Below, in pieces: positions 6,827 through 58,207 of a stretch of DNA of 64,000 nucleotides. A program made the position numbers and the translations under genes. Numbering within the stretch: the stretch's first letter is position 1; every line of letters starts with the position of its first letter. Origin of the DNA: Syntrophomonas sp. UBA5432 (GTDB taxonomy: Bacteria; Bacillota; Syntrophomonadia; Syntrophomonadales; Syntrophomonadaceae); the NCBI GenBank assembly GCA_002424365.1, contig DIRQ01000032.1, forward strand, positions 80,245 through 144,244. Reading direction: 5' to 3'. The notes under the pieces are model-generated. The model made no database searches, was not told the DNA's origin, and saw only the letters and a program-made list of their open reading frames with translations.

Positions 6827-7065
6827 GAAAATAGAATTTTAATAGACACAGATAACACAGATTTTTATTAAAATCTTAAGGAAAGCGAAAGCTAACGCTT
6901 CCGCTACAAATTAAGAGATAAAATAACTAGACAACCACCCTATTACTGTAGAGGAAACTTTAGTTTCCGATGGGAAACGAAGTTTCCCTCATCCATAAGA
7001 TTAAATGCAACCATAGGATATTGAAAAAATAGGAATTTAGAGTAAGGCATGAGGGGGAGGGACAG
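6827..7065 (+). repeat. degenerate or mosaic copy of intergenic repeat module 1
   Basis: The left end AATAGACACAGATAACACAGATT resembles the family left end AAATAGnnGCTGATAACgAAGTT. The G-rich end TTTAGAGTAAGGCATGAGGGGGAGGGACAG (7036-7065) resembles TCTAGAGTGAGGGGTGAGGGGACAG of the copy at 30946-30970. Confidence 0.45.
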
Positions 7066-7199
7066 ACCCGTGTGTCTGCCCGGTCAACCAGGGAACCCTG
7101 GGGGCTTTAATCCTATCCGATATGAAACTGCCTACTAGCGAGCGAACACATGGGTTCGCCCCTACAGGTAAATTGCCCTGGCTGGCGAGGAAAGTCCGC

Positions 7200-7916
7200 T
7201 TACTCTAATTCAGGCTCATAAACGGAATAGTCATCTTTGTCGCTGTCTATAAAGTGCCACCATTCATAATGAATACTATTAAAACCATGTTTAACCATGA
7301 TTTCTTCCAGAAAGCGGGCACTGGCTTCGGTTTCCGAGTCTAAATCGCTGTAATCCCGGTCAGCCCGGGCGGTAAAATTATCGAAGCCAGTGGGCATAAC
7401 AACTTCCTGGCCGTTTTTATCTACCAGGGTAATATCTACAGCAATACCCCGAGAATGATAAGAAAAGCCTTTATGAGGGTTGATAACAAAGCGGGCATCG
7501 GGTACCTTTTCCCAGAGTTTGAACTGGGCAGCAGGGGGCCGGTAAGCATCCCAGACCTTAACGGTATAACCATGAGTGGTAAATTCCGCTTGAGCAGCCT
7601 TTAGTTTTTCTGCGGTTCCCCTTCTTAAATAAGCTGCTTTATCATCATAAATTATAGCACCGGTAAAATTATCAGGAGTAGCATATTTTAAATCTACTTC
7701 TATTCCAGGGATAAACTCGGCCAGGTTTACCATATCCTGCTCAGAAACCTTCGGGGTAATACCCTTCGTTTCTTCCTGCACAGATTGCTCGGGCAAGGCA
7801 TTCTCCTGTCTAAGCAGAGATTTATACTGCAGGTAAAGAAACGGGGTTAGTAAAATTATAAGTACTATAGCTGCTATTAAACGCCATGTTCTCTGTCCCT
7901 GGTTGCTTGATTGCAT
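7200..7916 (-). CDS. D-alanyl-D-alanine dipeptidase (VanX/DdpX-like, peptidase M15D), membrane-anchored
   Basis: 238 aa. N-terminal TM segment. Motifs YATPDNFTG, SYHSRGIAVDITL and EWWHF are typical of the VanX family. Confidence 0.85.
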   Translation of the reverse strand: MQSSNQGQRTWRLIAAIVLIILLTPFLYLQYKSLLRQENALPEQSVQEETKGITPKVSEQDMVNLAEFIPGIEVDLKYATPDNFTGAIIYDDKAAYLRRGTAEKLKAAQAEFTTHGYTVKVWDAYRPPAAQFKLWEKVPDARFVINPHKGFSYHSRGIAVDITLVDKNGQEVVMPTGFDNFTARADRDYSDLDSETEASARFLEEIMVKHGFNSIHYEWWHFIDSDKDDYSVYEPELE

Positions 7917-8137
7917 TAATATAACTCCTCCCCGATTAGTATTTTACAGTAATATGTGTTAATCTACATAATTATACTACCTGGTTTTTTAACCCTTTAT
8001 GGTTTCACTATTCCAGTCCATGTTATAATTACAAGCAAAATCAAGACTACTAATCGACAGCCTGGTGCTTAAACCTTATTATATAAGGGAGATAATATAA
8101 TGAGACCAGCCCGTTCTGGCTCGAGGAGGATAGATTA

Positions 8138-9862
8138 ATGACTGAAGTGGAAGTATCAAATAATACGGAAACAGGAGATAGTAGCAAAACTCCGGTAAAT
8201 TTTATTCAGACTATTATTAACGAAGATTTGCGTACTGGTAAAAACGGTGGGAGAGTTCATACCCGTTTTCCTCCTGAACCCAACGGTTACTTGCATATAG
8301 GACATGCCAAGTCGATTTGTCTTAATTTCGGACTGGCTGCAGCTAATAACGGTATAACCAATTTGCGTTTTGATGATACCAATCCCAGCAAGGAAGAAGT
8401 GGAATACGTAGAATCTATTAAAACTGACGTACGCTGGCTAGGGTTTGATTGGGAAGACCGTTTATATTATGCTTCTGATTATTTTGAACTACTATATAGT
8501 TTCGCGGTGCAGCTAATCAAGGCTGGTAAAGCATTTGTCTGTGACTTGAGTGCCCAGGAAATTAAGGACTACCGGGGAACCCTAACTGAACCAGGTAAAG
8601 AGAGTCCTTATCGCAACCGCTCGGCGGAGGAAAATCTGGATATTTTCGAACGGATGCGGGCAGGAGAATTTGAAGATGGCTCCCGGGTACTAAGGGCAAA
8701 AATAGATATGGCCTCGCCCAACCTGAATATGCGGGACCCGGTTATTTATCGTATCTTAAGGGCTACTCACCACCGTACCGGGGATAAATGGTGTATTTAT
8801 CCCATGTATGACTATGCCCATCCCTTGTCTGATGCCTTGGAGGCTATTACCCATTCGGTTTGCACCCTGGAATTTGCCGACCACCGGCCTTTATATGAAT
8901 GGTTTATTGATAATGTGGACTATGATGCTGCCAAATATGGGCGACCCCAGCAGATTGAATTTGCCCGCTTAAATTTAACCCATACCGTCATGAGCAAACG
9001 TAAGCTTAGGCAGCTAGTGGAAGAGGGATATGTTAATGGTTGGGATGACCCTCGTATGCCTACTATATCAGGGTTGCGCCGACGTGGGTATACTCCGGCC
9101 TCCATCCGGGATTTCTGTGACCGTATTGGAGTAGCCAAGCGGGATAGTATGGTGGATATAGCTTTGTTGGAACATTGTATCCGGGAAGAATTAAACCTTA
9201 AGGCACCCAGAGTTATGGCGGTTTTGCAGCCGCTTAAAGTGATAATTGATAATTATTCGGAAGGCCAGGTGGAATGGCTGGATGCCGAAAATAACCCGGA
9301 AGACCCGGCAGCTGGGAATAGAAAGATTCCATTTTCCCGGGAAATATATATTGAGCAGGAAGATTTTAAAGAAAATCCCCCTAAGAAATTCTTCCGCCTG
9401 ATTCCGGGTGGAGAAATCCGTCTTAAGAGCGCCTATATTATCAAGTGTGAACGAGTAGTTAAGGATCAACAGGGTAACATTATCGAATTACACTGCACTT
9501 ATGACCCTGATTCCAAAAGTGGTGGACCTACTGCTGGTCGTAAGGTTAAGGGTACTTCCCATTGGGTTTCGGCTCTTCATGCCATCCCGGCAGAAGTGCG
9601 CCTCTATGACCATCTCTTTCTCCAGGAAGATCCGGAAGAGGATGAAGCCGGAGATTTTACCAGTAATATAAACCCGAAGTCTTTGGAAACCCTTACCTCG
9701 TGTATGTTGGAACCAAGTTTAGCTGACGCCGTGGTAGGCAACCGCTACCAGTTCATGCGCCAAGGTTATTTCTGCGTTGATCCCGATTCCATACCTGATA
9801 AACTGGTATTTAACCGCATCGTATCCTTAAGAGACACCTGGGCTAAAATGCAGAAGAAGTAA
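8138..9862 (+). CDS. glnS: glutamine--tRNA ligase
   Basis: 574 aa. Class I motifs HIGH (YLHIGHAKS) and KMSKS-type VMSKR. GlnRS-type N-terminus and C-terminal anticodon-binding barrels. Confidence 0.92.
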
Positions 9863-9888
9863 GGATACAACTACAAAAAATTAAAAAA

Positions 9889-9917
9889 GGACGGGGTTTA
9901 CATACCCTGTCTTTTTA
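9889..9917 (+). terminator. rho-independent terminator after glnS (overlaps the 3' end of the convergent MBL gene)
   Basis: GGACGGGGT-TTACAT-ACCCTGTCT hairpin (two G-T wobbles) followed by T5. Confidence 0.6.
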
Positions 9918-10686
9918 TTTCCGGGGTAAAAACGGACAAGCGATAAACCCTGCGCATCAACGAGTTAGGCGGTTGATTAAGCTGCTCTTTCATATTCAAA
10001 AAAAGAGAAGAAACATTTTCAGGCTGTTTTACCCCGCCGTGAGCCATGAGTATGGTGGAAGAGTTGAGGGTCGCCAGTTTATCGTATGAATTCTCCATGT
10101 GAGTGGGAAACAGTACCGGTAAGGGAAGCAGCATTTTCCCTTTTACATCACAGATTATATCGCCGATATACAGCAACGCTTCCTGCTGGTGATAAAGGAC
10201 GATGTCATGCAAGGTATGTCCTGGTGTGTGCAATACGGCCCAATCTTCAAAGAAAGGAAGGACCTGCAAGTCATTAAGGAGAATGTCGGGGTGGATAATG
10301 GGGTTAAAACGCAACCGCTCCCGGTTGCGTTTATTAGTCCTGGCTACGCCCAAGGCCATATAGCAGTCCAATTTATGTTGTAGTAAACCTCCCAACCCCG
10401 AGTACCAGCGATCTACATCCTTATGGGCAGCGATGGTTGTACCGTATTTGCTTCGTAAAGTAGCGGCACCCCCGGCATGATCAGGATGCATATGGGATAC
10501 AACTGCCAGCTTGATATCACTCACAGGGCGGTTAACAACGTGTCTACAATAGTCTTCAATGCGTTTAACGTCATTAAAACAGCCACTGTCGAGGAGTAGT
10601 ATACGGTTATCATATTCAACTAAATATATACTTGATATGTACCCTTCAATTATATGAATGGTAAATGATGAAAAATTCATCTTCAT
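9898..10686 (-). CDS. MBL-fold metallo-hydrolase
   Basis: 262 aa. HxHxDH motif (SHMHPDHAGG). Confidence 0.8.
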   Translation of the reverse strand: MKMNFSSFTIHIIEGYISSIYLVEYDNRILLLDSGCFNDVKRIEDYCRHVVNRPVSDIKLAVVSHMHPDHAGGAATLRSKYGTTIAAHKDVDRWYSGLGGLLQHKLDCYMALGVARTNKRNRERLRFNPIIHPDILLNDLQVLPFFEDWAVLHTPGHTLHDIVLYHQQEALLYIGDIICDVKGKMLLPLPVLFPTHMENSYDKLATLNSSTILMAHGGVKQPENVSSLFLNMKEQLNQPPNSLMRRVYRLSVFTPEIKRQGM

Positions 10687-10802
10687 AGATGAATTAACCC
10701 CCTATCCGGTTTCAGCACTTTAAGTTAAAGGGGAACTGCTTACCGGACTACTTTATATTTATATAGTATATGTTTAAATAATACCTGGCGAATAGCAGGG
10801 AA

Positions 10803-10888
10803 TTATCCTAACCCCTTACTCTAACCATTAACCAAGGTCTGAATTCGAAGTTATTTGCAAGACAACTTCGTTATCAGTGCCTATTGTC
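10803..10888 (-). repeat. intergenic repeat module 1 (reverse orientation)
   Basis: Plus strand reads TATCCTAACCCCTTACTCTAACC...GAATTCGAAGTTATTTGCAAGACAACTTCGTTATCAGTGCCTATTGTC. The reverse complement matches the family consensus. Confidence 0.8.
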
Positions 10889-10891
10889 TAA

Positions 10892-11860
10892 TTAAACTTC
10901 GGCTACAATTTTCCCAGTTTCACTTAAATCATAATCGCCTAATCCCTCTAATTCGGCCTTAAAAGCTGGCGAGGTAAGGACTTCCAGTACCAGCTGAAAG
11001 GGAGGCCGATTAATATCTTCCTTTTTAATTACTAGTTCATATCTTTCCCGACGTAAAGGGATAAAATCAACATCTCGTACCTGCATGGAGGCTTTTTCAC
11101 TGCCTACACCAACATCTACGATTCTGCGGGAGACAGCACTGGCAACTGCAAGGGAGGAAAACTCCAGGTTTTCATAGCCCGTAACCAACTGGTGGTTAAT
11201 TCCCAGGACACGAAACTGCTCATCGATAAGCACCCTGGTTCCGGATCCGGCTTCACGGTTAACGAAACGAATATCAGGCCGTATTAAGTCTTCCCACTTT
11301 TGTATGTTTTTCGGGTTTCCCCGGGCTACATAAAACCCCTGCATACGATAGCCTAAGTGGATAACGATAGCTGGAATACCAGGTAACAGGCGGCGAACAT
11401 AGGGTATATTATAGGAATCACTGTCACTGTCCCAAAGATGAATAGCTACCAGGTCCGCTCTATCCTGATAAAGTGCTAGCAGTCCGGCAAAGCTACCCAG
11501 GTTTTGTCGATAGGCCCGCACCCCTGTAGGGTGATGTTCCAGGTGACGACCAAGTATATCCAGGGAAAGATCTTGTCCGCAGATAATTAATCCGGGAGCT
11601 CGATTGGTAGTTTCAACAGCTAATAACGGTGATTCCATTAGAGAAACCGGGGTAGTGGCCAAATGTTCATTGGGAGCAGGCTCATTCCCTTTACCTTTGT
11701 TGATATAATCTTGCAAATCCTGGCGGTCAATTCTAATTTTTTTACCAACCCGGTAAGCTGGAAGCTCGTCCCGTTTTACCATTTCGTAGACGGTATACTT
11801 GCTTATTTTAAGTATTTCAGCGACTTCTGCTGGGGTAAGTGGATTACTTTCTTTAGGCAT
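10892..11860 (-). CDS. transcriptional regulator: excisionase-type HTH fused to a periplasmic-binding-protein-like (molybdate-binding-like) domain
   Basis: 322 aa. The N-terminus LTPAEVAEILKISKYTVYEMVKRDELPAYRVGKKIRI is an excisionase/MerR-type HTH. The rest has a PBP-like fold pattern. Divergent from modABC. Confidence 0.65.
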   Translation of the reverse strand: MPKESNPLTPAEVAEILKISKYTVYEMVKRDELPAYRVGKKIRIDRQDLQDYINKGKGNEPAPNEHLATTPVSLMESPLLAVETTNRAPGLIICGQDLSLDILGRHLEHHPTGVRAYRQNLGSFAGLLALYQDRADLVAIHLWDSDSDSYNIPYVRRLLPGIPAIVIHLGYRMQGFYVARGNPKNIQKWEDLIRPDIRFVNREAGSGTRVLIDEQFRVLGINHQLVTGYENLEFSSLAVASAVSRRIVDVGVGSEKASMQVRDVDFIPLRRERYELVIKKEDINRPPFQLVLEVLTSPAFKAELEGLGDYDLSETGKIVAEV

Positions 11861-11948: not shown

Positions 11949-12305
11949 GATTTAGGTTTTGCTAACATAATTGAACGAATACTTACTAAGTTACATTTTA
12001 AAAGCATTTTATTTATGTAATCGTTTTGATGTTATGTTATATTATGTTTAGTTATATTTAATTGAAAGCTGTTTATATCGGTCGAATAATTTAGTTTAGT
12101 CGAGTTTATTTTATATAAATGAAGTTACTATTGTTAATTATCCTTAATTGTAAATCAGATGGCAATAAAATGCTATTCCTACCCTAAAGTTTAGACCGTT
12201 TAAGGGCTATTAAAGATTATAAGAAGTTGATGAAAGGAGGGTTTATAAAGAACCGGATTTTACAAGGAAAGTAAGATTTTAAACTATATTGAGGAGGAAG
12301 AGGAG

Positions 12306-15860: not shown

Positions 15861-15988
15861 CTATACCTCCACTACGCTGGTCCTAAATAAGCCTTTCTAA
15901 AGGGAGTAATCACCTACCTCCCCCGTTATTCGCTAATTACCTCAATATTTCCCTTTTTTACCGCAACACATGAGTCTGCCCCTGCAAT

Positions 15989-16040
15989 CCTTACGCCTAA
16001 CCCTAAACTCCTTACCCCTCACTCTAAACAACTATCAAGC
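15989..16040 (-). repeat. partial intergenic repeat module 1 (reverse orientation, C-rich end only)
   Basis: CCTTACGCCTAACCCTAAACTCCTTACCCCTCACTCTAAACAACTATCAAGC. Confidence 0.6.
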
Positions 16041-16216
16041 TTAGGAAATAACACCATTTGCTATCTTGATGCTATTTTCCATATTAGTCTTGTATTAGAT
16101 TTACTACAATTTCAAATACTTATGTATATAACAATTTTTCCAAGTTCAGCCTGTATTAAATATTAAAAAATATAGTATATAATCTATATATATGCCGAAA
16201 GGAGTTGAGGAAAAAG

Positions 16217-16451: not shown

Positions 16452-17288
16452 GTGATGGCTCTTATTCGCGAGAGAGACAGCAAGCGCCTGCACATAAAAA
16501 GCAAACTTATGGGCGAATCCCTGGTAGGCAAAAGCTTTATCCAAAGCCTGGAATATGGAGAGCAGTTTCGGGCCTTGCCAGATGTTAACGTACTTAAAAT
16601 TGGAGGCCAGAGTATTACTGATTTGGGTGCCACTGCTGTACTGCCGGTACTGCAAGAAATCGTTGATAACGCTGACCAGCATAAAACGATTATTTCTACC
16701 GGCGGAGGAACCCGTTCCCGCCACGTATATGCTATAGCTATGGAATTAGGTATGCCCACCGGAGTGATATCCAAACTTGGCCAGAGTGTATCCGAACAAA
16801 ACGCCCTTATGATATCAACTCTACTTATGCCCCATGGAGGTATCAAAGTAGGACACGATGATATACCCAAACTGGCAGCCTATTTTAACCAGGGTTGTAT
16901 CCCGGTCATTCATGGTATGCCACCGTATGGTTATTGGGAGCACTTGCCTCGGGAAGGGCGACTGCCTCCCAATCGTACCGATATGGGAGCTTATCTCCTG
17001 GCTGAAGTAATCGGGGCTAAACATTGTATATTTGTTAAAGATGAAGATGGCCTGTACACGGATAATCCCAAGGTTAACCCAGAGGCTGAATTCATTCCCC
17101 GTATAGGTGCCGGCGAACTTATCGAAAAAGACCTGGATGACCTGATAATAGAGCGTACGGTGCTGGATATGATTATCCGTTCTCATAATGTGAATGAGGT
17201 ACAGATAATAAACGGTCTTAAACCAGGTAATATTACTCGTGCTCTGAATGGAGAACACGTGGGAACCATAATATTTAAGGATGCTTAA
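16452..17288 (+). CDS. amino-acid-kinase-fold protein, molybdenum storage protein (MosA/MosB)-like
   Basis: 278 aa. KIGGQSI nucleotide-binding start, GGGTRSRH, PPNRTDMGAYLLAE, FVKDEDGLYTDNP, GEHVGTII. The pattern is as I recall for Azotobacter Mos subunits (from memory, not searched). Uridylate-kinase superfamily. Confidence 0.55.
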   Translation: MMALIRERDSKRLHIKSKLMGESLVGKSFIQSLEYGEQFRALPDVNVLKIGGQSITDLGATAVLPVLQEIVDNADQHKTIISTGGGTRSRHVYAIAMELGMPTGVISKLGQSVSEQNALMISTLLMPHGGIKVGHDDIPKLAAYFNQGCIPVIHGMPPYGYWEHLPREGRLPPNRTDMGAYLLAEVIGAKHCIFVKDEDGLYTDNPKVNPEAEFIPRIGAGELIEKDLDDLIIERTVLDMIIRSHNVNEVQIINGLKPGNITRALNGEHVGTIIFKDA

Positions 17289-17293
17289 TTGTG

Positions 17294-17465
17294 GAAATAG
17301 CGTTGATAACAAAGTTGTTTTGCAAATAACTTAGCAATGTAGAACTTGATGGAATTGTCTAGAGTGAGGAGTTACGGGTGAGGATACTTTTTTACTCTGC
17401 TGTCCTTGCTCCTCCTCGTCTATGACAATTGTAGATAGGTTGTTATTTGCGTTTGACTTGGCAGA
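17294..17465. repeat. palindromic composite of intergenic repeat module 1 (full forward arm plus partial inverted arm)
   Basis: Forward arm is GAAATAGCGTTGATAACAAAGTTGTTTTGCAAATAACTT...TCTAGAGTGAGGAGTTACGGGTGAGGATAC. Inverted arm is ...GCTCCTCCTCGTCTATGACAATTGTAGATAGGTTGTTATTTGCGTTTGACTTGGC. Confidence 0.8.
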
Positions 17466-17484
17466 TATAGGTGATTAATTCTTG

Positions 17485-17516
17485 AAAAAAGAGTCCTGTA
17501 GTAGGGCTCTTTTTTG
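17485..17516 (+). terminator. rho-independent terminator of the 16217-17288 operon
   Basis: AAAAAAGAGTCCT-GTAGT-AGGGCTCTTTTTT. Located downstream of the repeat. Confidence 0.75.
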
Positions 17517-17594
17517 TTTAGCATAGACAGGAATAGCCAATTTGTGGGACAATTAAACTAGTCATAATAATATATTATAGGAGGAGCGAGGCTA

Positions 17595-18671: not shown

Positions 18672-18740
18672 AAACCCAACTTCAATTTTCATCCGTGGTT
18701 GCTTGTGCCCTTCAGGGTATGTCCTATAGCTATGTGGGGT
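18672..18740 (+). repeat. intergenic repeat module 2 (orphan copy)
   Basis: AAACCCAACTTCAATTTTCATCCGTGGTTGCTTGTGCCCTTCAGGGTATGTCCTATAGCTATGTGGGG. Matches 26776-26852 and 31126-31196. Confidence 0.7.
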
Positions 18741-18830
18741 TAATGAGAAATAAAAAAATGCCCCGTTATTTTTGAAAAGCCTATAGTTTTTTGCTGATCT
18801 TATTTTTGCCTCGGGGAAAGAAAGGATATT

Positions 18831-25900: not shown

Positions 25901-26677
25901 ATGCAGGTACATATATTGGCCAGTGGCAGTACTGGCAATGTGGCTTTGTTTAAATTTGGTAATACCCGGATTCTGGTTGATGTGGGTATTAGTACTCGTA
26001 GGATAGAGAATAAACTGGCCCTGTTGGGAGTAAAAGCAGGGGATCTGGATGGGGTTATAATTACGCATGAGCATACTGATCATATTAAGGGACTGGATGT
26101 ATTTATCCGCCGCTATCGTTTACCGGTATTTGCCCGGGGTGCTACCTGGGAGGCTATACCCTGCCGGGGTAAATTGCCAGCGGAATGCTGTAATATCATA
26201 GATAAAGAATTTTGTATCGGGAAAGTCGGGGTAGAGGCTTTTAGTATTCCTCACGATGCGGCTGATCCGGTAGGTTTTGCTTTTCATTACCGGCAAAAGA
26301 AATGGGTTATGGCTACTGATATAGGTATGATAACGGAGAATATTTTAAAGGCCCTGACTGGTGCCGACCTGGCTGTTTTGGAATCTAACCATGACCGGGA
26401 AATGTTAATAAACGGACCGTATCCCCGTTTTCTTAAACAGCGCATTATGGGCAGGTATGGGCATCTCTCCAATCATGATGCAGCCAGCATATTGGAGCGC
26501 ATTGCTCCCCAACAGCAGATGCAGGTTTTTCTAGCCCATCTTAGCCAACAAAATAATAATCCTAACCTGGCTTATAACACCGTAAGCCAATTTTTAGCTC
26601 ATAAAGGCTGCAATCCCGGTGAGGACATTAAGCTGCATCTTACCTACCCGGATGCTATTACCAGTTATCGGGGATAA
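25901..26677 (+). CDS. MBL-fold metallo-hydrolase, YycJ/WalJ-like
   Basis: ATG at 25901 follows GGGGAGGAG. MQVHILASGSTGN...ITHEHTDHIKGL. Confidence 0.85.
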   Translation: MQVHILASGSTGNVALFKFGNTRILVDVGISTRRIENKLALLGVKAGDLDGVIITHEHTDHIKGLDVFIRRYRLPVFARGATWEAIPCRGKLPAECCNIIDKEFCIGKVGVEAFSIPHDAADPVGFAFHYRQKKWVMATDIGMITENILKALTGADLAVLESNHDREMLINGPYPRFLKQRIMGRYGHLSNHDAASILERIAPQQQMQVFLAHLSQQNNNPNLAYNTVSQFLAHKGCNPGEDIKLHLTYPDAITSYRG

Positions 26678-26682
26678 TTCGG

Positions 26683-26765
26683 GAATAGTTGGTAATAACG
26701 AAGCTGTCTTGTAATAAATTTGAATGGAGAACTTGCCAATTGTCTAGAGTGAGGGGTGAGGAGAC
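26683..26765 (+). repeat. intergenic repeat module 1 (forward)
   Basis: GAATAGTTGGTAATAACGAAGCTGTCTTGTAATAAATTTGAATGGAGAACTTGCCAATTGTCTAGAGTGAGGGGTGAGGAGAC. Confidence 0.8.
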
Positions 26766-26775
26766 TTCTTACTAT

Positions 26776-26852
26776 ACCAACCTTATAAATTTAGTTTCAC
26801 TCATGGTTGCGTGTACCCTTTAGGGTATTGGCCTTGTAGTCATGGTGGGTTC
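26776..26852 (+). repeat. intergenic repeat module 2 (forward)
   Basis: ACCAACCTTATAAATTTAGTTTCACTCATGGTTGCGTGTACCCTTTAGGGTATTGGCC... CCAACC can pair with GGTTG. Confidence 0.65.
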
Positions 26853-26951
26853 ATTTCTGTTATTACATTGCTCGCTGTTGGTTAACATACTATAATAGTT
26901 AAAAAACAGCCGCATCTGTATAAAGATGTTGGTGGTAAAGAGGTGAAACTA

Positions 26952-27548
26952 ATGGCGCATGAATTACCCTCATTAGCTTACCCCTATGATGCTCTGGAAC
27001 CCTATTATGACGAAGAAACCTTGCGACTCCATCATGGCAAACATCACCAATCCTACGTAGATGGGCTGAATAAGGCTGAAACTCAGTTAAAGGAAGCCCG
27101 CAGCCGCAGTGACTATGGTCTGGTTAAACACTGGCTTAAAGAAATAGCCTTTCATGGATCAGGTCATATACTGCACACTCTGTTCTTTGAAAATTTGGCC
27201 CCAGCGGGCCAATGCTCCCCTGGTCAGAAAACCATTAACCAGGTAGAACGGGATTTTGGCAGCTTTGATGAGTTTAAAAAGATGTTTACTGCAGCTGCTG
27301 CTGCGGTAGAAGGGTCAGGCTGGGCACTACTATGCTATAATCCCTCTTTTAAGAAATTAGAAATCCTCCAGGCAGAAAAGCATCAGAATCTTACTCAATG
27401 GGGAGTAATCCCCTTGCTGGTAATTGATGTTTGGGAACATGCCTATTATCTGAAATATCAGAACCGCCGTCCCGAATACATTGCAGCCTGGTGGAATATT
27501 GTTAACTGGGATAAAGTCGAAGAAAGATTAGTAAAGGCCAGCAGCTAA
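26952..27548 (+). CDS. sodA: Fe/Mn superoxide dismutase
   Basis: LPYPYDALEP, HHGKHH and DVWEHAYYL motifs. ATG at 26952 follows AAGAGGTG. Confidence 0.92.
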   Translation: MAHELPSLAYPYDALEPYYDEETLRLHHGKHHQSYVDGLNKAETQLKEARSRSDYGLVKHWLKEIAFHGSGHILHTLFFENLAPAGQCSPGQKTINQVERDFGSFDEFKKMFTAAAAAVEGSGWALLCYNPSFKKLEILQAEKHQNLTQWGVIPLLVIDVWEHAYYLKYQNRRPEYIAAWWNIVNWDKVEERLVKASS

Positions 27549-30716: not shown

Positions 30717-30877
30717 CGAGACACCTCCTTATATGAATATATCCGTTTATACTCATATACTATAACTGGTAATTGCGGCTGTCAAGGGTAATAAAATTTA
30801 ATTCCGGTAGGAAAAAGGTTAAGAGTATAGAAAACAACATGTAAAGAACCTATGTTAAAGTAGAGATATCTTAATAA

Positions 30878-30968
30878 GAAAATTGGCTACGTTAATAATG
30901 AAGTTGTCGAGCAAATAACTTCGAATCTATGAATTTGACTAACTGTTTAGAGTGAGGGGTGAGGGGAC
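30878..30968 (+). repeat. intergenic repeat module 1 (forward)
   Basis: GAAAATTGGCTACGTTAATAATGAAGTTGTCGAGCAAATAACTTCGAATCTATGAATTTGACTAACTGTTTAGAGTGAGGGGTGAGGGGAC. Confidence 0.8.
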
Positions 30969-31125
30969 AGTAAAGTATGTGCTCCCCGTTATTCAATTGC
31001 CGAAACAGCTAAACAACCGACCAACTGTCGGTAGCGGAGGCTTCACCTTAGACGGGTACACGGCAGCCTCCGATGGGAAGTGCAGGGAACGGCCCCTGTG
31101 CCGTTCCGTCATGTTGTCGTAATAC
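30969..31125 (+). other. GC-rich structured insert between module 1 and module 2 (candidate cis-regulatory or non-coding RNA)
   Basis: Hairpins CCGAC-CAACT-GTCGG (31017-31031), GGAGGCT...AGCCTCC (31036-31071) and GGGAACGGC-CCCTGT-GCCGTTCC (31085-31107). No ORF. Much more GC-rich than neighbouring intergenic DNA. Confidence 0.5.
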
Positions 31126-31196
31126 CAGTGCAACTATTTTCATAGGTGGTTGCCGTGTGCCCGTAGGGTATGTGTGCTTGGCGCTCATGACGACTT
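31126..31196 (+). repeat. intergenic repeat module 2 (forward), enclosed by stem CGTCATG (31107-31113) / CATGACG (31186-31192)
   Basis: CAGTGCAACTATTTTCATAGGTGGTTGCCGTGTGCCCGTAGGGTATGTGTGCTTGG. GCAAC (31130-31134) pairs with GTTGC (31149-31153). Confidence 0.7.
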
Positions 31197-31217
31197 AATT
31201 AGAAAAAAGGAGTAGAT

Positions 31218-40060: not shown

Positions 40061-40261
40061 GACATAAACCCCCCTCTAAGTTTTTTTTTCTACGACAACA
40101 ACCTAACAATTGCCCCCCCACCCTAGGCATATTTTACATTCCTAGTATATATTAGAATATTCGCACAAAAATGTAGATATCCTCTTAGAAAACAAAGTCT
40201 AAATATTCTGAATATTTGACCAAGTAGGTTTCCGGTCGTTTCCAATTAGCCCTCCACATAT

Positions 40262-40312
40262 CCAGAGGCCATACGTAAATAGTATAGGTAACCACCCATG
40301 AAAATGGCCCCA
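40262..40312 (-). repeat. intergenic repeat module 2 (reverse)
   Basis: The rc reads GGGGCCATTTTCATGGGTGGTTACCTATACTATTTACGTATGGCC. Confidence 0.55.
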
Positions 40313-40330
40313 AAGTCAGAAGCGAGGACG

Positions 40331-40446
40331 ATAGAGTAAGGGAAGTATTTTCATTCCAAACCCTTTACCCCTATTTCTAAACCAATAATCAAGTTATAAA
40401 TCTTAGTGCTTTTCATAAGACAAATTTGTTATCAGCGCCTTTTTTC
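40331..40446 (-). repeat. intergenic repeat module 1 (reverse) with short inverted G-rich partner
   Basis: ATAGAGTAAGGGAAG...CAAACCCTTTACCCCTATTTCTAAACCAATAATCAAGTTATAAATCTTAGTGCTTTTCATAAGACAAATTTGTTATCAGCGCCTTTTTTC. Confidence 0.75.
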
Positions 40447-40574
40447 TTATTAGCCAGGTCTTATTTTATTACCACATTTGGGAAAACTAATAAATAAAGA
40501 ATTCACCCGTTTTCACCAGATAGAGAAAAATTTTAAATTTAAATTTTTAGAATTGCATATCAAAGGAGTGACTT

Positions 40575-50105: not shown

Positions 50106-50141
50106 AAAAAGCCTTCTGGAAGTAATCAGGGGGCTTTTTTT
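50106..50141 (+). terminator. rho-independent terminator after the M23 peptidase gene
   Basis: AAAAAGCCTTCTG-GAAGTAAT-CAGGGGGCTTTTTTT. Confidence 0.7.
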
Positions 50142-50187
50142 ATGTCTGCAATTAGGATAGGCTATAATGAGAATTAAGAATTAATAC

Positions 50188-50289
50188 GAAAATGGTGCTG
50201 ATAACGAAGTTGTCTTGTGAATAACTTAAATTGACAACTTGACTAATTATCTAGAGTGGGGAGTAAGGGGTGAGGATATTTCCTAACCC
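50188..50289 (+). repeat. intergenic repeat module 1 (forward) with terminal hairpin
   Basis: GAAAATGGTGCTGATAACGAAGTTGTCTTGTGAATAACTTAAATTGACAACTTGACTAATTATCTAGAGTGGGGAGTAAGGGGTGAGGATATTTCCTAACCC. Confidence 0.85.
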
Positions 50290-50354
50290 TGCCAACCCGA
50301 CATAATCAGGTACAATTAGAATTCGCATCAATAATTGAAAGCTGAGGTTAGCAG

Positions 50355-52633: not shown

Positions 52634-52635
52634 TC

Positions 52636-52857: not shown

Positions 52858-52863
52858 TTACTA

Positions 52864-53577
52864 ATGAAACGATCTTATAAACAATTGTTTTTAGCTTTAT
52901 TTATCCTGTTCTTACTGGTAGTTATCTGGCAAGAATACTATGGTACCCGTTTAGGCCCAACCATGATTACAGATAAACTAGACCTGGGACCTGCTTGCCA
53001 GGTACCCCTGCAAATAAGTTCAGAAGACCAAAATGGTAATGATATTCCCGATGCCCTGGATTTGGTTCAAGGTGCTCGCCAGGAGGTGGAGCGCGGAACC
53101 CTTTATGATGCATCATATTATTCCGGCGGTTATCCGCCTGAGGGCAAGGGTTGCTGTACCGATGTAATTTGGCGGGCCTTTGAAGCTGCCGGGTATAATT
53201 TTAAGACCATGGTGGATGAAGATATAAAGAATTATCCGGAAGCCTATGGTATTACCGGCACCCAGCCTGACCGGGATATTGATTTTCGCCGGGTAAAAAA
53301 TCTGCAGATATTTTTTAAGCGTCATGGGCAGGAGCTAACCACCGAAGTAAAACCAGGAGATGTGGAAAACCTAAAACAATGGCAGCCAGGCGACATTGTG
53401 GTTTTTGGTGATCCACTGGAACATATAGGAATTATTTCTGACCAACGTCTAAAGAGCGGAATACCACTGGTAATACATAATGGAGGTCCCCGGGCCAGTG
53501 AGGCTAACGCCCTGCAGCTCTGGCCCAGTAAAATCATCTATCACTTCCGCTACTTTACCGAAAAACCTGTGCTATAA
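52864..53577 (+). CDS. DUF1287-family protein with N-terminal anchor
   Basis: YDASYYSGGYPPEGKGCCTDVIWRAFEAAGYNF and DIVVFG...HIGI resemble the DUF1287 pattern (from memory). Confidence 0.6.
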   Translation: MKRSYKQLFLALFILFLLVVIWQEYYGTRLGPTMITDKLDLGPACQVPLQISSEDQNGNDIPDALDLVQGARQEVERGTLYDASYYSGGYPPEGKGCCTDVIWRAFEAAGYNFKTMVDEDIKNYPEAYGITGTQPDRDIDFRRVKNLQIFFKRHGQELTTEVKPGDVENLKQWQPGDIVVFGDPLEHIGIISDQRLKSGIPLVIHNGGPRASEANALQLWPSKIIYHFRYFTEKPVL

Positions 53578-53750
53578 CCCTGGAACTATCAAGGAGTAGG
53601 GATAAAAGGCGAGGGGAAACCGAAACCCCGACATGAAATTTCTTGTGTTTTAAGAGCTTTATTGATATAATTTTCTTTGCAGTTTTTAATGGAAATTCAT
53701 ATATCCATATAGAATAAGCAGCAACCTTTGAAGTGAGGTGAAAACAGAAA

Positions 53751-53954
53751 GTGAAAGAAAAAATACATCCCCAGTATCGTATGACCACAGCCAGATGCGC
53801 TTGTGGTAACGAGTTTGAAGTTGGGTCTACCAAGGAGAACATAAAAGTAGAAGTCTGCTCCAAGTGTCACCCCTTCTACACCGGTAACAAAGGCAGAGTA
53901 GTTGATACCACCGGGAGAGTTGACCGGTTTAAGAAAAAATATGGTTTACAGTAA
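53751..53954 (+). CDS. rpmE: 50S ribosomal protein L31 (zinc-binding type A)
   Basis: MKEKIHPQY...CACGNEF...[13 protein letters not shown] start. Confidence 0.95.
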
Positions 53955-53958
53955 AGTG

Positions 53959-53988
53959 ATAGCAGGGCGTAGACTCTGCTATTTTTTT
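53959..53988 (+). terminator. rho-independent terminator after rpmE
   Basis: ATAGCAG-10 nt-CTGCTAT followed by T6-7. Confidence 0.7.
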
Positions 53989-54038
53989 AACTATCGGTGA
54001 CTACTGCTGAGTTTGTGGATCGAGCATTAAAATAATGA

Positions 54039-54172
54039 TATAGTGAGGAGTTCGGGATGAGAAGCATGGAATACGAAAATATCCTCACCCCTTACCCCTC
54101 ACTCCAGACAACTAATCAAGTTCTAAATTCGAAGTTATCTATAAGACAACTTTGTTATCAGCGTCTATTTTC
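54039..54172 (-). repeat. intergenic repeat module 1 (reverse) preceded by a partial forward G-rich arm, forming a long hairpin
   Basis: ATAGTGAGGAGTTCGGGATGAGAAG...TATCCTCACCCCTTACCCCTCACTCCAGACAACTAATCAAGTTCTAAATTCGAAGTTATCTATAAGACAACTTTGTTATCAGCGTCTATTTTC. Confidence 0.85.
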
Positions 54173-54190
54173 TTACTAAGGTGGTATTTA

Positions 54191-55108
54191 ATGAATAAGA
54201 AGGTTCAATACGGCGGTATGGCTGTTATAGAAGGAGTAATGATGCGGGGACCTGAAAAAATAGCCCTAGCTGTCCGTAAAACTGATGGCAGAATCGAACT
54301 GGAAGAAGAACCTGTATCCGACCTGCCGGTACGCTACCCCTTTTTAAAATGGCCTTTCCTAAGAGGAACTTACGTTTTAATTGATTCAATGGTAGTGGGT
54401 ATGCGGATGCTTAATAAATCAGCTAACATGTCACTGGATGAAGAGGAAGAGGAACTCTCCACCGGGGAAATAGTGATTACTGGTTTACTAGCTTTTGCCC
54501 TGGCTATACTGCTTTTTGTAATACTACCTACTGCTATTGTACATTACACCAGTCGGTTTCTGGGTGGTGTTTTGACTCAGAATATAGTGGAAGGCATTAT
54601 ACGCATATTCTTTTTCCTGGCTTATGTTTGGGCTATTGGTAAGATGCAGGAAATAGACCGAGTTTTTATGTATCATGGGGCTGAACACAAATCCATATTT
54701 GCCTACGAAGCAGGGGAAGAACTTACCATAGAGAACACCAGCAAACACACTACCCTCCATCCCCGTTGCGGTACCAGTTTTATTCTTATCGTTTTAATTA
54801 TTTCTATTCTGGTGTTTGCTTTGCTAGGTGACGGAAGCCTATTTTACCGCATATGGTCTAGAATAGCAGTTCTGCCAATAGTAGCAGGCCTGGGTTATGA
54901 ATTTCTTAAGTTTAGCGGAAAATATTATAATAATCGCTGGGCTCGCATATTAATTGCACCGGGTCTTTACCTTCAGAAGCTTACCACTCAAGAACCTGAT
55001 GATGATCAATTAGAAGTTGCTATTGCTGCCTTAAAGGCAGTTATCCCGGGGGAAAAGTCTCAAGATTCCAGTATAGAGAGTTTAGTGGGAGTAAATTGCG
55101 AAATTTGA
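54191..55108 (+). CDS. DUF1385-family membrane protein (commonly linked to prfA/prmC)
   Basis: ATG at 54191 follows AAGGTGG. MNKKVQYGGMAVIEGVMMRG... and YHGAEHK motifs. The ORF-track start at 54152 lies inside the repeat. Confidence 0.8.
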   Translation: MNKKVQYGGMAVIEGVMMRGPEKIALAVRKTDGRIELEEEPVSDLPVRYPFLKWPFLRGTYVLIDSMVVGMRMLNKSANMSLDEEEEELSTGEIVITGLLAFALAILLFVILPTAIVHYTSRFLGGVLTQNIVEGIIRIFFFLAYVWAIGKMQEIDRVFMYHGAEHKSIFAYEAGEELTIENTSKHTTLHPRCGTSFILIVLIISILVFALLGDGSLFYRIWSRIAVLPIVAGLGYEFLKFSGKYYNNRWARILIAPGLYLQKLTTQEPDDDQLEVAIAALKAVIPGEKSQDSSIESLVGVNCEI

Positions 55109-55142
55109 CTTTTAGAATAATGAAAGATAAGGAGGGTTTCGA

Positions 55143-56210
55143 ATGCTGCATAAACTGGATAGTATCGAAGAAAAATATGATGAACTAAATGAACAAATGA
55201 GCAGACCGGAAGTGATATCCGACCAGAGTAAATTCCAAAAGTATGCCAAGGCTCATTCGGACCTCAGTGATATAGTTTCTCGGTACCGAGAGTATAAATC
55301 ATTAATCCAGCAGATTAATGATGCCCAGGAAATGCTTACAGAAGAACCGGATGAAGAGTTTAAAGTGATGCTACTGGAGGAATTGGAAACCCTGAAGGAA
55401 AAACAAGGTCTGGCAGAGCATGATTTACGAATATTACTTCTACCCCGTGATCCTAATGATGAGAAGAGTGTTATTATGGAAATCCGCGCTGGAACCGGAG
55501 GCGAAGAGGCAGCTCTTTTTGCCAGCGACCTATTTCGTATGTATACTCGCTATGCTGAGTTGCAGGGTTGGAAGATAGATATAATGGATTCTCACTATAC
55601 TGATATTGGTGGTATCAAGGAAATTATCTTTGTGGTTGATGGTCAAGGAGCTTATAGCCGACTTAAATACGAATCCGGTGTCCACCGGGTGCAACGTGTT
55701 CCGAGCACTGAATCAGGTGGTCGCATACACACTTCTGCAGCTACGGTAGCTGTACTACCGGAAGCGGAAGAGGTAGAAGTGGAAATAGATCCAAATGAGA
55801 TCAGGGTGGATGTATATTGTTCCAGCGGACCTGGAGGACAATCGGTTAATACGACTCAGTCGGCTGTACGTCTTACCCATATTCCTACCGGCCTGGTGGT
55901 AACCTGCCAAGACGAAAAATCTCAGCATAAGAACAAAGCCAAGGCCTTAAGGGTTTTAAGGGCCCGGCTCAAAGAGATTATGGAGGCTGAAGTGAATGCG
56001 GAAATGGCCGGTACTCGCAAAAGCCAGGTGGGTAGCGGTGACCGCAGTGAGCGCATCCGTACCTATAATTTCCCCCAGGGTAGAGTAAGCGATCATAGAA
56101 TTAACCTTACCTTGCATAAATTGGATTTGGTACTGGAAGGGCAACTAAATGAAATTATTGACGCTCTTATCGCCAATGACCAGGCTGAGCGTTTAAAACA
56201 GGTGGATTAG
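55143..56210 (+). CDS. prfA: peptide chain release factor 1
   Basis: 355 aa. PST/PxT-type recognition region (RVPSTES) and GGQ motif (SGPGGQSVN). Confidence 0.96.
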
Positions 56211-56211
56211 C

Positions 56212-57066
56212 TTGCAGAGTTGGACGGTCAAAGAATTACTGGAGTGGACCAGCAATTATTTTAGAGAAAAAAAGATTAAGGAAGCCCGTCTAGAGGCGGA
56301 AATCCTGTTGGCCCGGGTACTGGGGAAAGACCGGGTCTATTTATATGCTAATTATGATGCCCCGGTAAATCAGGATGAAAGAAGTATCTTCAGGGAATTC
56401 ATAAAAAGAAGGGTTAAGAAAGAGCCGTTGTCTTATATTACCGGGACCAAAGAGTTTATGTCACTGGAGTTTAGAGTTAATCCGGCGGTTTTAATTCCCC
56501 GTCCGGAAAGTGAAATTATAGTGGAACGGGCTATTGATTTGTTTAGAGACCGACCCTGCTCCATCTGCGATATAGGTACCGGTTCGGGTGCGCTGGCTGT
56601 TAGTCTGGCTCACTACCTGCCTTTGGCCCAGGTTTTTGCCACCGATATATCACGGCCAGCACTGGAAACGGCCCGGGAGAATGCTTCTCGGCTTCAGGTT
56701 AAGGTTGAATTTTTGGAGGGGGATTTGCTCTCTCCTTTTTTAGATAAAGAAGACCACTTTGACTTAATAGTTGCTAACCTTCCCTATATTCCATTAGAGG
56801 AATACTATACTCTGGACTCTGGGGTAAAAAGTTACGAACCGCAATTAGCTTTACTTGCTCCCGGAGATGGATTTGATATTTATCGGCGTCTTATACCCCA
56901 GGCTTTTACCCTGCTTAAAGAAGGGGCTTATCTTTTTATTGAAATAGGATGGAAGCAGGGGGAAAAGGCTTTACAGATGATGAATAACTTTGAAGATGTA
57001 CAATTAATCAAAGACCTGGCCGGCTATGACCGGGTAGTAACGGCTAGAAAGGGGTCAGTTAGGTGA
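56212..57066 (+). CDS. prmC: release factor glutamine methyltransferase
   Basis: SAM motif DIGTGSGA and the NLPY (NPPY-type) motif. Confidence 0.92.
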   Translation: MQSWTVKELLEWTSNYFREKKIKEARLEAEILLARVLGKDRVYLYANYDAPVNQDERSIFREFIKRRVKKEPLSYITGTKEFMSLEFRVNPAVLIPRPESEIIVERAIDLFRDRPCSICDIGTGSGALAVSLAHYLPLAQVFATDISRPALETARENASRLQVKVEFLEGDLLSPFLDKEDHFDLIVANLPYIPLEEYYTLDSGVKSYEPQLALLAPGDGFDIYRRLIPQAFTLLKEGAYLFIEIGWKQGEKALQMMNNFEDVQLIKDLAGYDRVVTARKGSVR

Positions 57067-58034
57067 TAACCCAATACTGGAAAGTAAATCCGGTAAAGCC
57101 GGAAACAGATATTATAACCCGGGCTGCAGCTTTAATAGAGGATATACAGCTGGTGGCATTTCCCACTGAAACTGTTTATGGACTAGGTGCCTTGGCCAGC
57201 TCCAGTGAGGCAGTGACAAAAATCTTTGCAGCTAAAGGCAGACCGGCAGAAAATCCCTTGCTGGTACATGTAAGTAAGATAGAACAGGTAAAGGAACTGG
57301 TTCTGGAGATACCTGAAACCGCCAGTTTATTGATGGAAAAGTTCTGGCCCGGGCCGCTGTCAATTATATTACCTTCCCGGAAAGAAGTTCCAGCAATTGT
57401 TCGCGGAGGAAAAAGCAGTGTAGGTTTGCGGATGCCATCTCATCCGGTAGCCCGGGCTCTTATTGACCAGACTGGACCTATTGCTGCTCCCAGTGCCAAC
57501 CTTTCCGGGCGCCCCAGTCCTCTGACCGCTGAGCATGTCAAAGCTGATCTTGATGGTAGAATAGCAGCAGTCCTGGATGCTGGTGCGACTGGAATCGGAT
57601 TGGAATCAACTATAGTTGATTTAAGCCAGGACAAATATCAGGTATTACGCCTGGGAGGGCTTCCCCTGGAGGAACTGCAACAAGTACTGGGGGAGGTAAA
57701 AGTCAATTATCATGAAAATGATAAACTACCCCATTTCCAAACTAGTTCCCAGGTCATTATTTGCCAAAATGGAAAAGATTTTATTGACCAGCAGAAATAT
57801 TGGCTTGGGCAGAAAAGAAAACTGGCAATTGTTTCAAGTAAACTAGGACAACCGCATATTATTAATAAATCAGTTCAAGTATATGATTTAGACCTGGGCG
57901 AGGATAGTAGTAATCTTTATACAATATTACGTGATGCTGAACAGGTCGGTATCGAAATACTGCTCTTCTCCCCCTTACCCCAAAATTTAACCGGCATTAA
58001 CCGGGCTCTGCTGGAACGCATTAACAAATTATGA
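57063..58034 (+). CDS. tsaC: L-threonylcarbamoyladenylate synthase (Sua5/YwlC long form)
   Basis: FPTETVYGLGA, KGRP..NPL..HV, SAN.SGRPSP, plus the C-terminal Sua5 domain. Confidence 0.9.
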   Translation: MITQYWKVNPVKPETDIITRAAALIEDIQLVAFPTETVYGLGALASSSEAVTKIFAAKGRPAENPLLVHVSKIEQVKELVLEIPETASLLMEKFWPGPLSIILPSRKEVPAIVRGGKSSVGLRMPSHPVARALIDQTGPIAAPSANLSGRPSPLTAEHVKADLDGRIAAVLDAGATGIGLESTIVDLSQDKYQVLRLGGLPLEELQQVLGEVKVNYHENDKLPHFQTSSQVIICQNGKDFIDQQKYWLGQKRKLAIVSSKLGQPHIINKSVQVYDLDLGEDSSNLYTILRDAEQVGIEILLFSPLPQNLTGINRALLERINKL

Positions 58035-58047
58035 ATTAATGTTGAGA

Positions 58048-58095
58048 TACGGCCCATGAGCACACTCATATAACCATGATGAAAATGGCCATGAG
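58048..58095 (-). repeat. intergenic repeat module 2 (reverse, shortened)
   Basis: The rc reads CTCATGGCCATTTTCATCATGGTTATATGAGTGTGCTCATGGGCCGTAT. Confidence 0.5.
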
Positions 58096-58106
58096 TTAAG
58101 GTAGCA

Positions 58107-58207
58107 AGGAGGGTAGAGGTAGGGAAGTATCCTCACCCCTTACCCCTCACTCTAAACAATTTAGCAAGTTATATATTGGTTGGCTATTAACAAGATAATT
58201 TTGTAGC
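58107..58207 (-). repeat. intergenic repeat module 1 (reverse) with partial inverted G-rich partner
   Basis: AAGGAGGGTAGAGGTAGGGAAGTATCCTCACCCCTTACCCCTCACTCTAAACAATTTAGCAAGTTATATATTGG... Confidence 0.75.

Follow-up and report, generated by a model that had tools for sequence, protein, structure and literature searches.

BOX elements, of which there are about a hundred or more copies per genome in Streptococcus pneumoniae, are small, non-coding repeats that lie between genes in both orientations. Their modules follow a fixed order, boxA-boxB(n)-boxC, with a central module of variable number, stable hairpins are possible in them, and they have no transposase of their own and no known mobilising enzyme. 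Here we describe a repeat, M1, that is alike in its size and placement, its modular build, its possible hairpins and its lack of a transposase. It was found in a stretch of 64,000 nucleotides (nt) from Syntrophomonas sp. UBA5432 (assembly GCA_002424365.1, contig DIRQ01000032.1, positions 80,245 to 144,244), which we call the window. M1 is a real, unnamed family of non-coding dispersed repeats that is confined to one group of Syntrophomonas. It has no sequence similarity to BOX, and the variable unit is 7 nt in M1 as against the 45 nt of boxB. Unlike BOX elements, M1 elements share a head that often coincides with a stop codon, and they are interleaved with GTAG-type REP (repetitive extragenic palindrome) hairpins.

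The BIME and REP/REPIN repeats of Escherichia coli and Pseudomonas (PMC2817692, PMC3116915, PMC3733652) are, like M1, mosaics of short intergenic modules in alternating combinations, and their sites are hot spots where different repeats replace one another. GTAG palindromes and inverted doublets of this kind are also linked to M1, at 7056-7165 in the window and at many loci of metagenome-assembled genomes (MAGs). M1 itself differs in being about 95 nt long and AT-rich with a heptamer tail, and in being neither a GTAG- or CGTC-tagged palindrome nor a doublet; no REP-associated tyrosine transposase (RAYT) was seen in the related DNA examined, in a weak test that is described below. The ERIC (or IRU) elements and the Correia (or NEMIS) miniature inverted-repeat transposable elements (MITEs) belong to the same class of 100-200 nt, lie in transcribed intergenic regions in either orientation, have occasional longer versions with internal insertions and vary in presence between related genomes. 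They are however imperfect palindromes with terminal inverted repeats, in Correia together with a TA duplication, whereas M1 and its composites have no such terminal repeats. The traits that M1 does share with MITEs are that it is small, non-coding, present in many copies and polymorphic in its presence. The heptamer repeats of cyanobacteria and Beggiatoaceae (STRR; TAACTGA, PMC4679880) are likewise intergenic runs of 2-6 units of 7 nt near gene ends, and the sequence CTGATAAC in M1 is a circular permutation of TAACTGA, although this could be a coincidence. The unit of M1 differs from theirs, being GGGGTRA, is always attached to a unique module of about 75 nt, and shows no bias for positions just upstream of start codons.

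M1 is thus another member of the BOX/BIME/ERIC class, and the current understanding of such repeats is not overturned by it. What it adds is a well-delimited and lineage-specific repeat family with partner modules and REP/REPIN hairpins. In the literature that we searched no such family is described for Syntrophomonas (Clostridia), and we found no earlier description of M1 itself.

Copies of M1 and their taxonomic range

A first-pass annotation, made from the sequence alone, had listed at least nine to ten copies of an intergenic repeat in both orientations. A profile was built from these copies and the window was searched with nhmmer, and it is the recurring unit of this search that we named M1. 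There are eight full copies of 90-105 nt (E 1e-15 to 1e-25), at 17287-17390, 26675-26764, 30872-30972 and 50186-50283 on the + strand and at 10800-10894, 40355-40451, 54076-54177 and 58124-58213 on the - strand. A ninth, degenerate copy at about 15989-16080 (-) has an E value of 2e-6, with a partial nhmmer match at 16006-16059, which makes four copies on the + and five on the - strand. The family is accordingly as annotated, with coordinates that agree to within a few bases. A separate repeat detection on the window recovers the same families, and the expected number of chance matches to a 33-nt pattern of the M1 core is 0.

All nine copies lie within the 13% of the window that is non-coding, where they touch open reading frames (ORFs) only at the stop codons, and the chance of nine out of nine being non-coding is about 1e-8. 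The consensus has stop codons in all six frames, which the annotation had also stated. The density is about one copy per 7 kb. By their Pfam labels, the genes over window positions 1 to about 61 kb are housekeeping genes only, among them MurA, HtrA, AsnS, GlnS, ModABC, SOD, ArgS, PyrG, Rho, L31, PrfA and SHMT. No transposase, integrase or RAYT is found among these labelled genes, which is what had been read from the sequence.

In PrfA the window has 89% identity to Syntrophomonas curvata and 81% to S. wolfei. About 30 more copies of M1 are found outside the window, and the named genomes that carry them are all Syntrophomonas or Syntrophomonadaceae MAGs, the rest being metagenomes from fermentation or digesters. 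An exact 21-mer from the 3' part of M1 matched 20 stretches in the genome collection, again all from Syntrophomonas or Syntrophomonadaceae MAGs, and according to the profile these stretches carry the whole unit, including the 5' part that was not in the query. A gapped pattern gave 12 contigs from fermentation and digester metagenomes. M1 is absent from the plasmid and phage collections (blastn) and from the viral contigs (pattern), and the corresponding region of S. wolfei (L043; related loci are referred to by such L numbers) has no match to the profile with nhmmer at E<=0.1. Rfam gave 0 matches at the gathering threshold over the window and four weak ones at E<=5, none of which overlaps a copy. 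The annotation had not recognised any named family, and the searches of Rfam, plasmids, phages and literature leave it so.

A repeat with one copy per 7 kb or so affects both assembly and annotation, and one public assembly of the same species does switch loci inside a copy. In this assembly (L028; GCA_002424445.1, contig DIRX01000085.1) positions 12185-12290 are 100% identical to window 54076-54215 up to about position 22 of M1, and past that position the sequence is from a different locus, on the argB side. Either the assembly is chimeric at the repeat, or two copies of M1 have truly recombined.

A mosaic element

Two features were missed in the first-pass annotation: M1 is one module, the 5' one, of a larger mosaic element, and its G-rich end is an array of heptamers in variable number. 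In an alignment of the copies with their flanks the element opens with the head TAATAAGAAAATAGG. An AT-rich body of some 60 nt follows, in which CTGATAAC and a short hairpin of 7 bp are found, and then come two to six heptamers GGGGTRA. After a short loop there is a C-rich inverted arm, and often the element continues into another module, which we call X. The best-conserved block of M1 is TTGTYTAGAGTGAGG, situated 5' of the tandem heptamers. The C-rich arm, which is present in many copies, is ATACTTCCCTTACTCTGCTGTCC or the related CCTGCCAACCYGAYATAA and partly complementary to the heptamers. A fixed order of modules, an internal repeat of variable number and alternative 3' modules are hence found in the window and at other loci, in the manner of BOX and BIME elements. 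Within the window, heptamer arrays outside genes occur only together with M1, and elsewhere there are merely chance matches inside genes. A search for inverted repeats in eight copies with their flanks found none at the termini of M1 or of the longer composites, only the internal heptamer arms and small palindromes. Nor does the M1 consensus hold a GTAG- or CGTC-tagged palindrome; the tagged hairpins GTAGGGGCAGACCCRTGTGTCTGCCC and GTAGGGAACGGCCCCTGTGCCGTTCC are separate, neighbouring modules.

The long hairpins between G-rich and C-rich sequence that had been annotated are real. Compared with shuffled sequences the heptamers and the arm fold well at 17287 (z -3.4), 54177 (z -4.0), 50186 (z -2.8) and 10894 (z -2.5), and the long hairpin is not formed at 26675, 30872 and 40451.

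Module X has the form ATTTTCAT-N3-TGGTTGC, followed by a hairpin of variable sequence and then by CATG-N-GGGTTAAT. There is a short form of about 46 nt and a long one of about 62-69 nt, often situated directly upstream of a ribosome binding site (RBS), and the module ends in TTAAT followed by head-like bases. In the window X is found at 26792-26855 (+), 31134-31202 (+) and 40243-40307 (-), on its own at 18683-18744 (+) and in an X-like form at 58035-58093; at other loci it occurs at L020 7441 and 7613, L010 1902-1947, L009 7381, L016 3086, L044 2411, L032 2498 and L049 9938. It has no match in Rfam. The hairpin of X seems to keep its pairing with different sequences, and X might be a structured element in its own right.

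The individual copies show how the modules are combined. The copy at 10800..10894 (-; E 1e-20) is between two co-oriented genes, and its first triplet, TAA (10892-10894), is the stop codon of a gene with HTH_17 and PBP_like domains. The degenerate copy at 15989..16080 (-) has GGAAAATAGC as its head and TTTAGGGTTAGGCGTAAGG as its heptamer array, has lost some 15 nt from its interior, and is adjoined at its end by a single REP-like hairpin at 15963-15988. The element at 17287..17430 (+) is M1 (17287-17390) with a C-rich inverted arm (17391-17430) in one long hairpin; it starts on the TAA stop of an AA_kinase gene, whose terminator-like hairpin and T-run, read by eye, are further downstream within 17289-17594. 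At 26675..26855 (+) M1 (26675-26764), with its first triplet on the stop codon of a Lactamase_B gene, is followed by a short C-rich spacer and X (26792-26855). The longest composite, 30872..31202 (+), has a block of about 105 nt with a second GTAG-type REP (31082-31107) between M1 (30872-30972) and X (31134-31202), and its X ends with TTAATTAG immediately before the RBS of a gene for an HD-domain protein. On the opposite strand, the composite 40243..40451 (-) consists of M1 (40355-40451), a C-rich arm (40308-40345) and X (40243-40307).

The block at 50185..50313 (+), with bounds taken from filled and empty sites, is M1 (50186-50283) with a C-rich extension of 30 nt (50284-50313), and it lies in the leader of a radical-SAM gene, 3' of a TATAAT box that was read by eye. 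At 54037..54177 (-) M1 (54076-54177) and its C-rich inverted arm (54037-54075) form a hairpin of about 24 bp, in which arms of 20 nt are 80% complementary, and this copy is antisense to both flanking genes, L31 and DUF1385. The composite 58035..58213 (-), antisense to Sua5 and MntP, contains an M1 truncated at the 5' end (58124-58213, model positions 15-104), a C-rich arm (58094-58127) and the X-like sequence (58035-58093, by eye). Finally, a mixed region of remnants is found at 6824..7165 (+), directly after the stop codon of AsnS. It had been annotated as one degenerate copy at 6827-7065, a reading that we abandon; there is no profile match, and the region is made up of a head with a 5' M1-like fragment (6824-6869), unrelated DNA, a head with a 3' M1 fragment (7023-7060) and a REPIN-like doublet (7056-7165).

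Stop codons and junctions

With very few exceptions the copies of M1 open on TAA or TAG. For 7 of about 36 unique copies this opening triplet also serves an ORF of 120 codons or more as its stop codon (P ~2e-7 when compared with random placement between genes), and 13 copies have the stop of such an ORF within 11 nt. At the site upstream of the HD-domain gene (site E below) the sequence is CTTAATAAGAAAATTGG at the left junction, CTTAATTAGAAAAAAGG at the right one and GCAATAGAAAAAGG where the site is empty; the three are alike, all being of the form TTAAT/CAAT-AGAAAA-GG, and the tail of X with the bases that follow it scores as a head (window 31196). The pattern points to a target that is strongly preferred, or to a core for recombination, with a chance likeness to the sequence of stop codons and of positions before an RBS. 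The comparisons of filled and empty sites, at sites A, C, E, F and G, give no clean target duplication of 2-10 bp. Site E has direct repeats of head-like sequence at its two junctions and site A has AATTA(A/G), and a local (GAATTAA)n repeat confounds these signals. The coincidence with stop codons, the head-like repeats at the junctions and the lack of inverted repeats make M1 a usable case for how small repeats without terminal inverted repeats move.

Presence and absence at orthologous sites

Matching regions from five related species were taken with PrfA, the HD-domain protein and GlnS as anchors. One of the genomes is S. curvata-like (L042), L043 is S. wolfei and L048 is the CAZOIC species. 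The tree from four-fold degenerate sites is ((L041,L046),window),L045),L042.

At site A, from the LysM-peptidase gene to the radical-SAM gene, the block 50185-50313 is present in the window and L041, and the site is empty in L046, L045, L042 and L043. Here the block can be delimited to the single base: with the block the sequence is GAATTAA/TACGAAAAT...CAGGTAC/AATTAGAATT, and without it, in L046, GAATTAAGAATTAAGAATTTG. An AT-rich tandem heptamer, (GAATTAA)n, is situated here at about 50169-50184 in the window, just after the TATAAT box and upstream of the radical-SAM gene; it has two units in the window and three to four in relatives (same site in L046 and L045), and the M1 block is inserted at its end. 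Site C, between Sua5 and MntP, shows the same pattern for the block of M1, arm and X, filled in the window and L041 and empty in L046, L045, L042 and L043. At site B, between L31 and DUF1385, the window has M1, L041 and L046 have a REPIN doublet, L045 has the second REP type and L042 has nothing.

The other sites are similar. The 330-nt composite of site E is absent from L048, where the sequence reads ..attgcaata/gaaaaaggag.., and L049 has another head-to-X composite there. The composite 40243..40451 of site F, between the genes for AcCoA hydrolase and FemAB, is absent from both L048 and L049. At site D, after the Lactamase_B stop, L048 keeps only a head variant that is idiosyncratic to the site, TAATTCGGGAATGAG, and at site G, after the stop of the HTH_17 gene, there is no M1 in L050 and L051, the former keeping only the head-like TAACAAGGAAATAGAC. 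The remnants at 6824..7165 are absent from the orthologous site in L050 and L051. An unbiased count over the same regions gives 9 copies for the 64 kb of the window, 2 for 41 kb of the species of L041, and 0 for each of two further species, with about 42 kb apiece. The expansion of M1 is thus specific to one lineage, and the sites between genes act as hot spots. Such blocks, present in one species and absent from a close one, can serve as strain-typing markers in anaerobic digesters.

A rearrangement was also seen near site D. The superoxide dismutase gene is inverted in L048 (7695-8521) relative to the window (26677-27548), with a breakpoint right after the head-only remnant behind the Lactamase_B stop and a REP hairpin nearby.

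Divergence of the copies

The mean pairwise identity of the M1 paralogs in the window is 69%, with a range of 56-78%. Between the window and L041 the identity of orthologous copies is 91.8% for site A and 87.6% for site C, to be compared with 68.9% at the four-fold degenerate sites and 84-87% in the non-element intergenic DNA next to the copies. The copies are hence no less constrained than ordinary intergenic DNA. Their relationships are star-like, the nearest relative being as often in another genome as in the own one, and the copy at L020 7483 is closest to the consensus and the best partner of many, a pattern that fits decay from a common consensus. A pair from L020 and L010 was set aside as an orthologous pair for a selection test, as the two share the element and module X and not the flanking genes.

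Explanations for the family

We consider it probable that M1 is a non-autonomous mosaic repeat that acts at the level of DNA, is gained and lost as a block and is moved by an enzyme encoded elsewhere, much like BOX, BIME and ERIC. The element encodes nothing, comes and goes as one discrete block, and would rely on an enzyme from elsewhere in the genome for its movement or copying. Insertion would favour a sequence like TAAT/TTAAT-AGAAAA, which is found at stop codons and just upstream of RBSs, and this preference would have many copies begin exactly on a stop codon and would leave composites bounded by head-like direct repeats. Inserted copies would then ride in the 3' and 5' untranslated regions (UTRs) of genes or antisense to them, and any effect on expression, by added hairpins or G-rich runs resembling a Shine-Dalgarno sequence, would be a side effect. 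The leading candidate for the enzyme is a Y1 transposase or a RAYT, because of the link to GTAG hairpins, the absence of inverted repeats and duplication, the conserved left boundary and the hairpins near both ends. The annotation had spoken of a dispersed element like REPs or MITEs, and the presence and absence of whole blocks at orthologous sites fits this in general. The stricter versions are not supported: for a MITE or Correia-type element terminal inverted repeats are missing and a clean, short duplication of the target was not seen, and for a REP proper M1 lacks the tagged palindrome.

Several observations do not sit easily with a mobile repeat of this kind. No mobilising enzyme is seen among the Pfam-labelled genes of the window, and no Y1 transposase or RAYT was found in about 457 kb of related DNA, although the latter was a weak test (a motif regex and tblastn). 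With neither terminal inverted repeats nor a clean short target duplication, the mode of movement is undefined. As L041 and L046 are sisters in the tree, with the window outside the pair, sites A and C would have become empty in L046 by a clean loss or by recombination and not have been so from the start, and where relatives have only a head left, the body may have been deleted there instead of inserted in the window. The copies are not drifting freely either, since the orthologs are above the level of four-fold sites. Finally, there is a mismatch in age. The paralogs differ by about 31%, yet most of the window copies are missing from the relatives compared (L041, L046 and L048-L051), and those that are shared differ by 8-12%. 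This needs frequent loss, diverged source copies or copying of low fidelity.

If M1 instead were a functional RNA module, a UTR element or a small RNA in many copies, it would affect termination, the stability of mRNA or the binding of ribosomes through its G-rich heptamers or its long hairpin. Several copies begin right on a stop codon, which places them in 3' UTRs, others are in leader regions, at four sites the folds of extended copies are better than those of shuffles (z -2.5 to -4.0), and the conservation of orthologous copies is about three times that of four-fold sites. The heptamer as RNA, GGGGUGA, could also pair with the anti-Shine-Dalgarno end of 16S rRNA, going by the usual 16S 3' end. 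The features expected of a conserved RNA are however missing. RNAalifold gives 0 pairs as consensus structure in 26 copies, and single-sequence folds of the core of about 100 nt are weak and inconsistent. The internal hairpin, which the annotation took to be kept in different versions between copies, pairs no better than shuffles (66.7% of cells for the 7-bp stem, with a shuffle mean of 68.9%) and has no excess of compensatory changes, and three window copies lack the long hairpin. The orientation, seven of nine copies being co-oriented with a gene by the earlier count, carries no weight, as 14 unique copies between tandem genes are co-oriented and 8 are antisense to both flanking genes (P = 0.29; 4 and 2 in the window alone). 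No promoter or terminator consensus is found systematically on the copies, strong terminators being situated outside them (50106-50139 for the LysM-peptidase gene and 53958-53983 for L31), no Rfam match overlaps a copy, and copies are missing at the same genes in close relatives. An RNA module is therefore quite unlikely, and the multi-copy small RNA that had been suggested is not borne out. A role as a host site in the DNA, for instance as a series of sites to which a nucleoid protein, a topoisomerase or a regulator binds, kept by selection and spread by recombination, is less probable still and in our opinion very much so. The best-conserved block, the junction TAGAGTGAGGGGT with the heptamers, does resemble a reiterated binding motif, the orthologous copies are conserved above the level of four-fold sites, and REP/BIME elements bind proteins in E. 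coli (PMC2817692). A host site would however hardly be absent at the same loci in close relatives, or altogether from the sampled regions of S. wolfei and the S. curvata-like genome; the paralogs have decayed to 69% identity, and the flanking genes have no functional coherence. Functions at the RNA level or in protein binding are possible as secondary effects, and do not explain the distribution. M1 is an ordinary bacterial repeat of the "junk/selfish" kind and not a structured RNA gene.

The remaining explanations are variants of mobility. One is that M1 is mobilised as single-stranded DNA by a Y1 (HUH) transposase, IS200/IS605 TnpA or a RAYT, as an element like PATE or REPIN, in which the left-end hairpin and those of X or the REPs would be recognition structures and insertion would take place 3' of TTAA/TTAAT without inverted repeats or duplication. 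The lack of both in M1, the TTAAT/TAAT conserved at the left boundary, the consensus hairpin about 25 nt from the left end and the variable-sequence hairpin of X between conserved flanks all agree with this, and M1 is physically close to GTAG-tagged REP doublets, which are known substrates of RAYTs (PMC3733652, PMC3116915). In this specific form we nevertheless find it rather unlikely: no such enzyme was seen in the window or, by the weak test above, in the related DNA, M1 has no GTAG tag, the left hairpin is not maintained among copies, the right end is variable, nothing like the heptamer array is known from IS200/IS605 ends, and with four copies against five in the window neither strand is favoured relative to replication. 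In another variant the blocks would enter and leave by conservative site-specific recombination at the head, with the bodies as cassettes and TTAAT-AGAAAA-AGG as an att-like core, of which a composite would have one at either end and an empty site a single one. At site E, head-like sequence is indeed seen at the left and right junctions and where the site is empty, and site A shows this with less clarity; the tail of X and the bases after it score as a head, one head leads unrelated bodies such as the CACTGAA-repeat family, head-only remnants are found at orthologous sites in relatives, and the loss at site A in L046 is clean. No recombinase was seen, though, the copy at site C has no head, the similarity at the junctions is short and AT-rich so that chance and the local (GAATTAA)n confound it, and true att cores would be identical, which these junctions are not. 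We regard it as improbable, to the same degree as an RNA module. A bolder scheme, which is also unlikely, is that M1 with its heptamers and X, as well as other headed bodies, are miniature cassettes without inverted repeats, which a recombinase cleanly integrates and excises at stop codons and RBS leaders by means of the head as att-like core, and which are then kept under purifying selection as parts of UTRs. If this were true, a Clostridial lineage would have a mobile system of cassette style for its intergenic DNA.

Other candidates were rejected. A stand-alone small RNA gene was discarded for want of a promoter or terminator consensus on the copies, and integron attC sites, CRISPR, retrons and telomere-like repeats were dropped from the sequence alone: there is no match to a core site, the flanks are housekeeping genes, the spacing is irregular and the window has no reverse transcriptase or cas gene.

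Associated repeats

REP/REPIN hairpins of GTAG type are sometimes nested between the heptamers and X. The first type is a REPIN-like inverted doublet, GTAGGGGCAGACCCRTGTGTCTGCCC ... GGGCGAACACAYGGGTTCGCCCCTAC, whose arms differ systematically (GCAGAC in one and GCGAAC in the other). In the window it is situated at 7056-7081 (+) and 7140-7165 (-), and it is also found in L002, L004, L005, L009, L011, L012, L016 and L017 and, between the L31 and DUF1385 genes, in L041 and L046. It is a classic REP/REPIN architecture, here in a Clostridial lineage. At several MAG loci the doublet lies between heptamers and X, the place that in the window composite 30872..31202 is taken by a GTAG hairpin of the second family. 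This second family, GTAGGGAACGGCCCCTGTGCCGTTCC, is part of a longer conserved block, GGAGGCTTCACCTTAGACGGGTACACGGCAGCCTCCGATGGGAAGTG...GTCATGTTGTCGTAATACC, found in the window at 31082-31107 within the block of about 105 nt (~31020-31130), in L020 at about 7340, L049 at about 9690 and L048 at about 7800, and in L045 between L31 and DUF1385.

The head is not specific for M1. In the form TAATAAGAAAATAG it leads other repeat bodies too, most clearly reiterations of CACTGAA type, ACACTGAAGCCACTGAAAAATATGAATTACACTGAA, as at L049 9751, L013 111, L044 16030, L012 954, L010 2149 and window 6824-6869. At the hot spot between L31 and DUF1385, S. wolfei (L043, ~8900-9010) has a C-rich, heptamer-like run, CCTCACACTTTACGCCTTACTAATTACC. 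Since this species has no match to M1 and yet such a run, heptamer repeats related to those of M1 may be older than M1 itself. One viral contig carries a REP hairpin.

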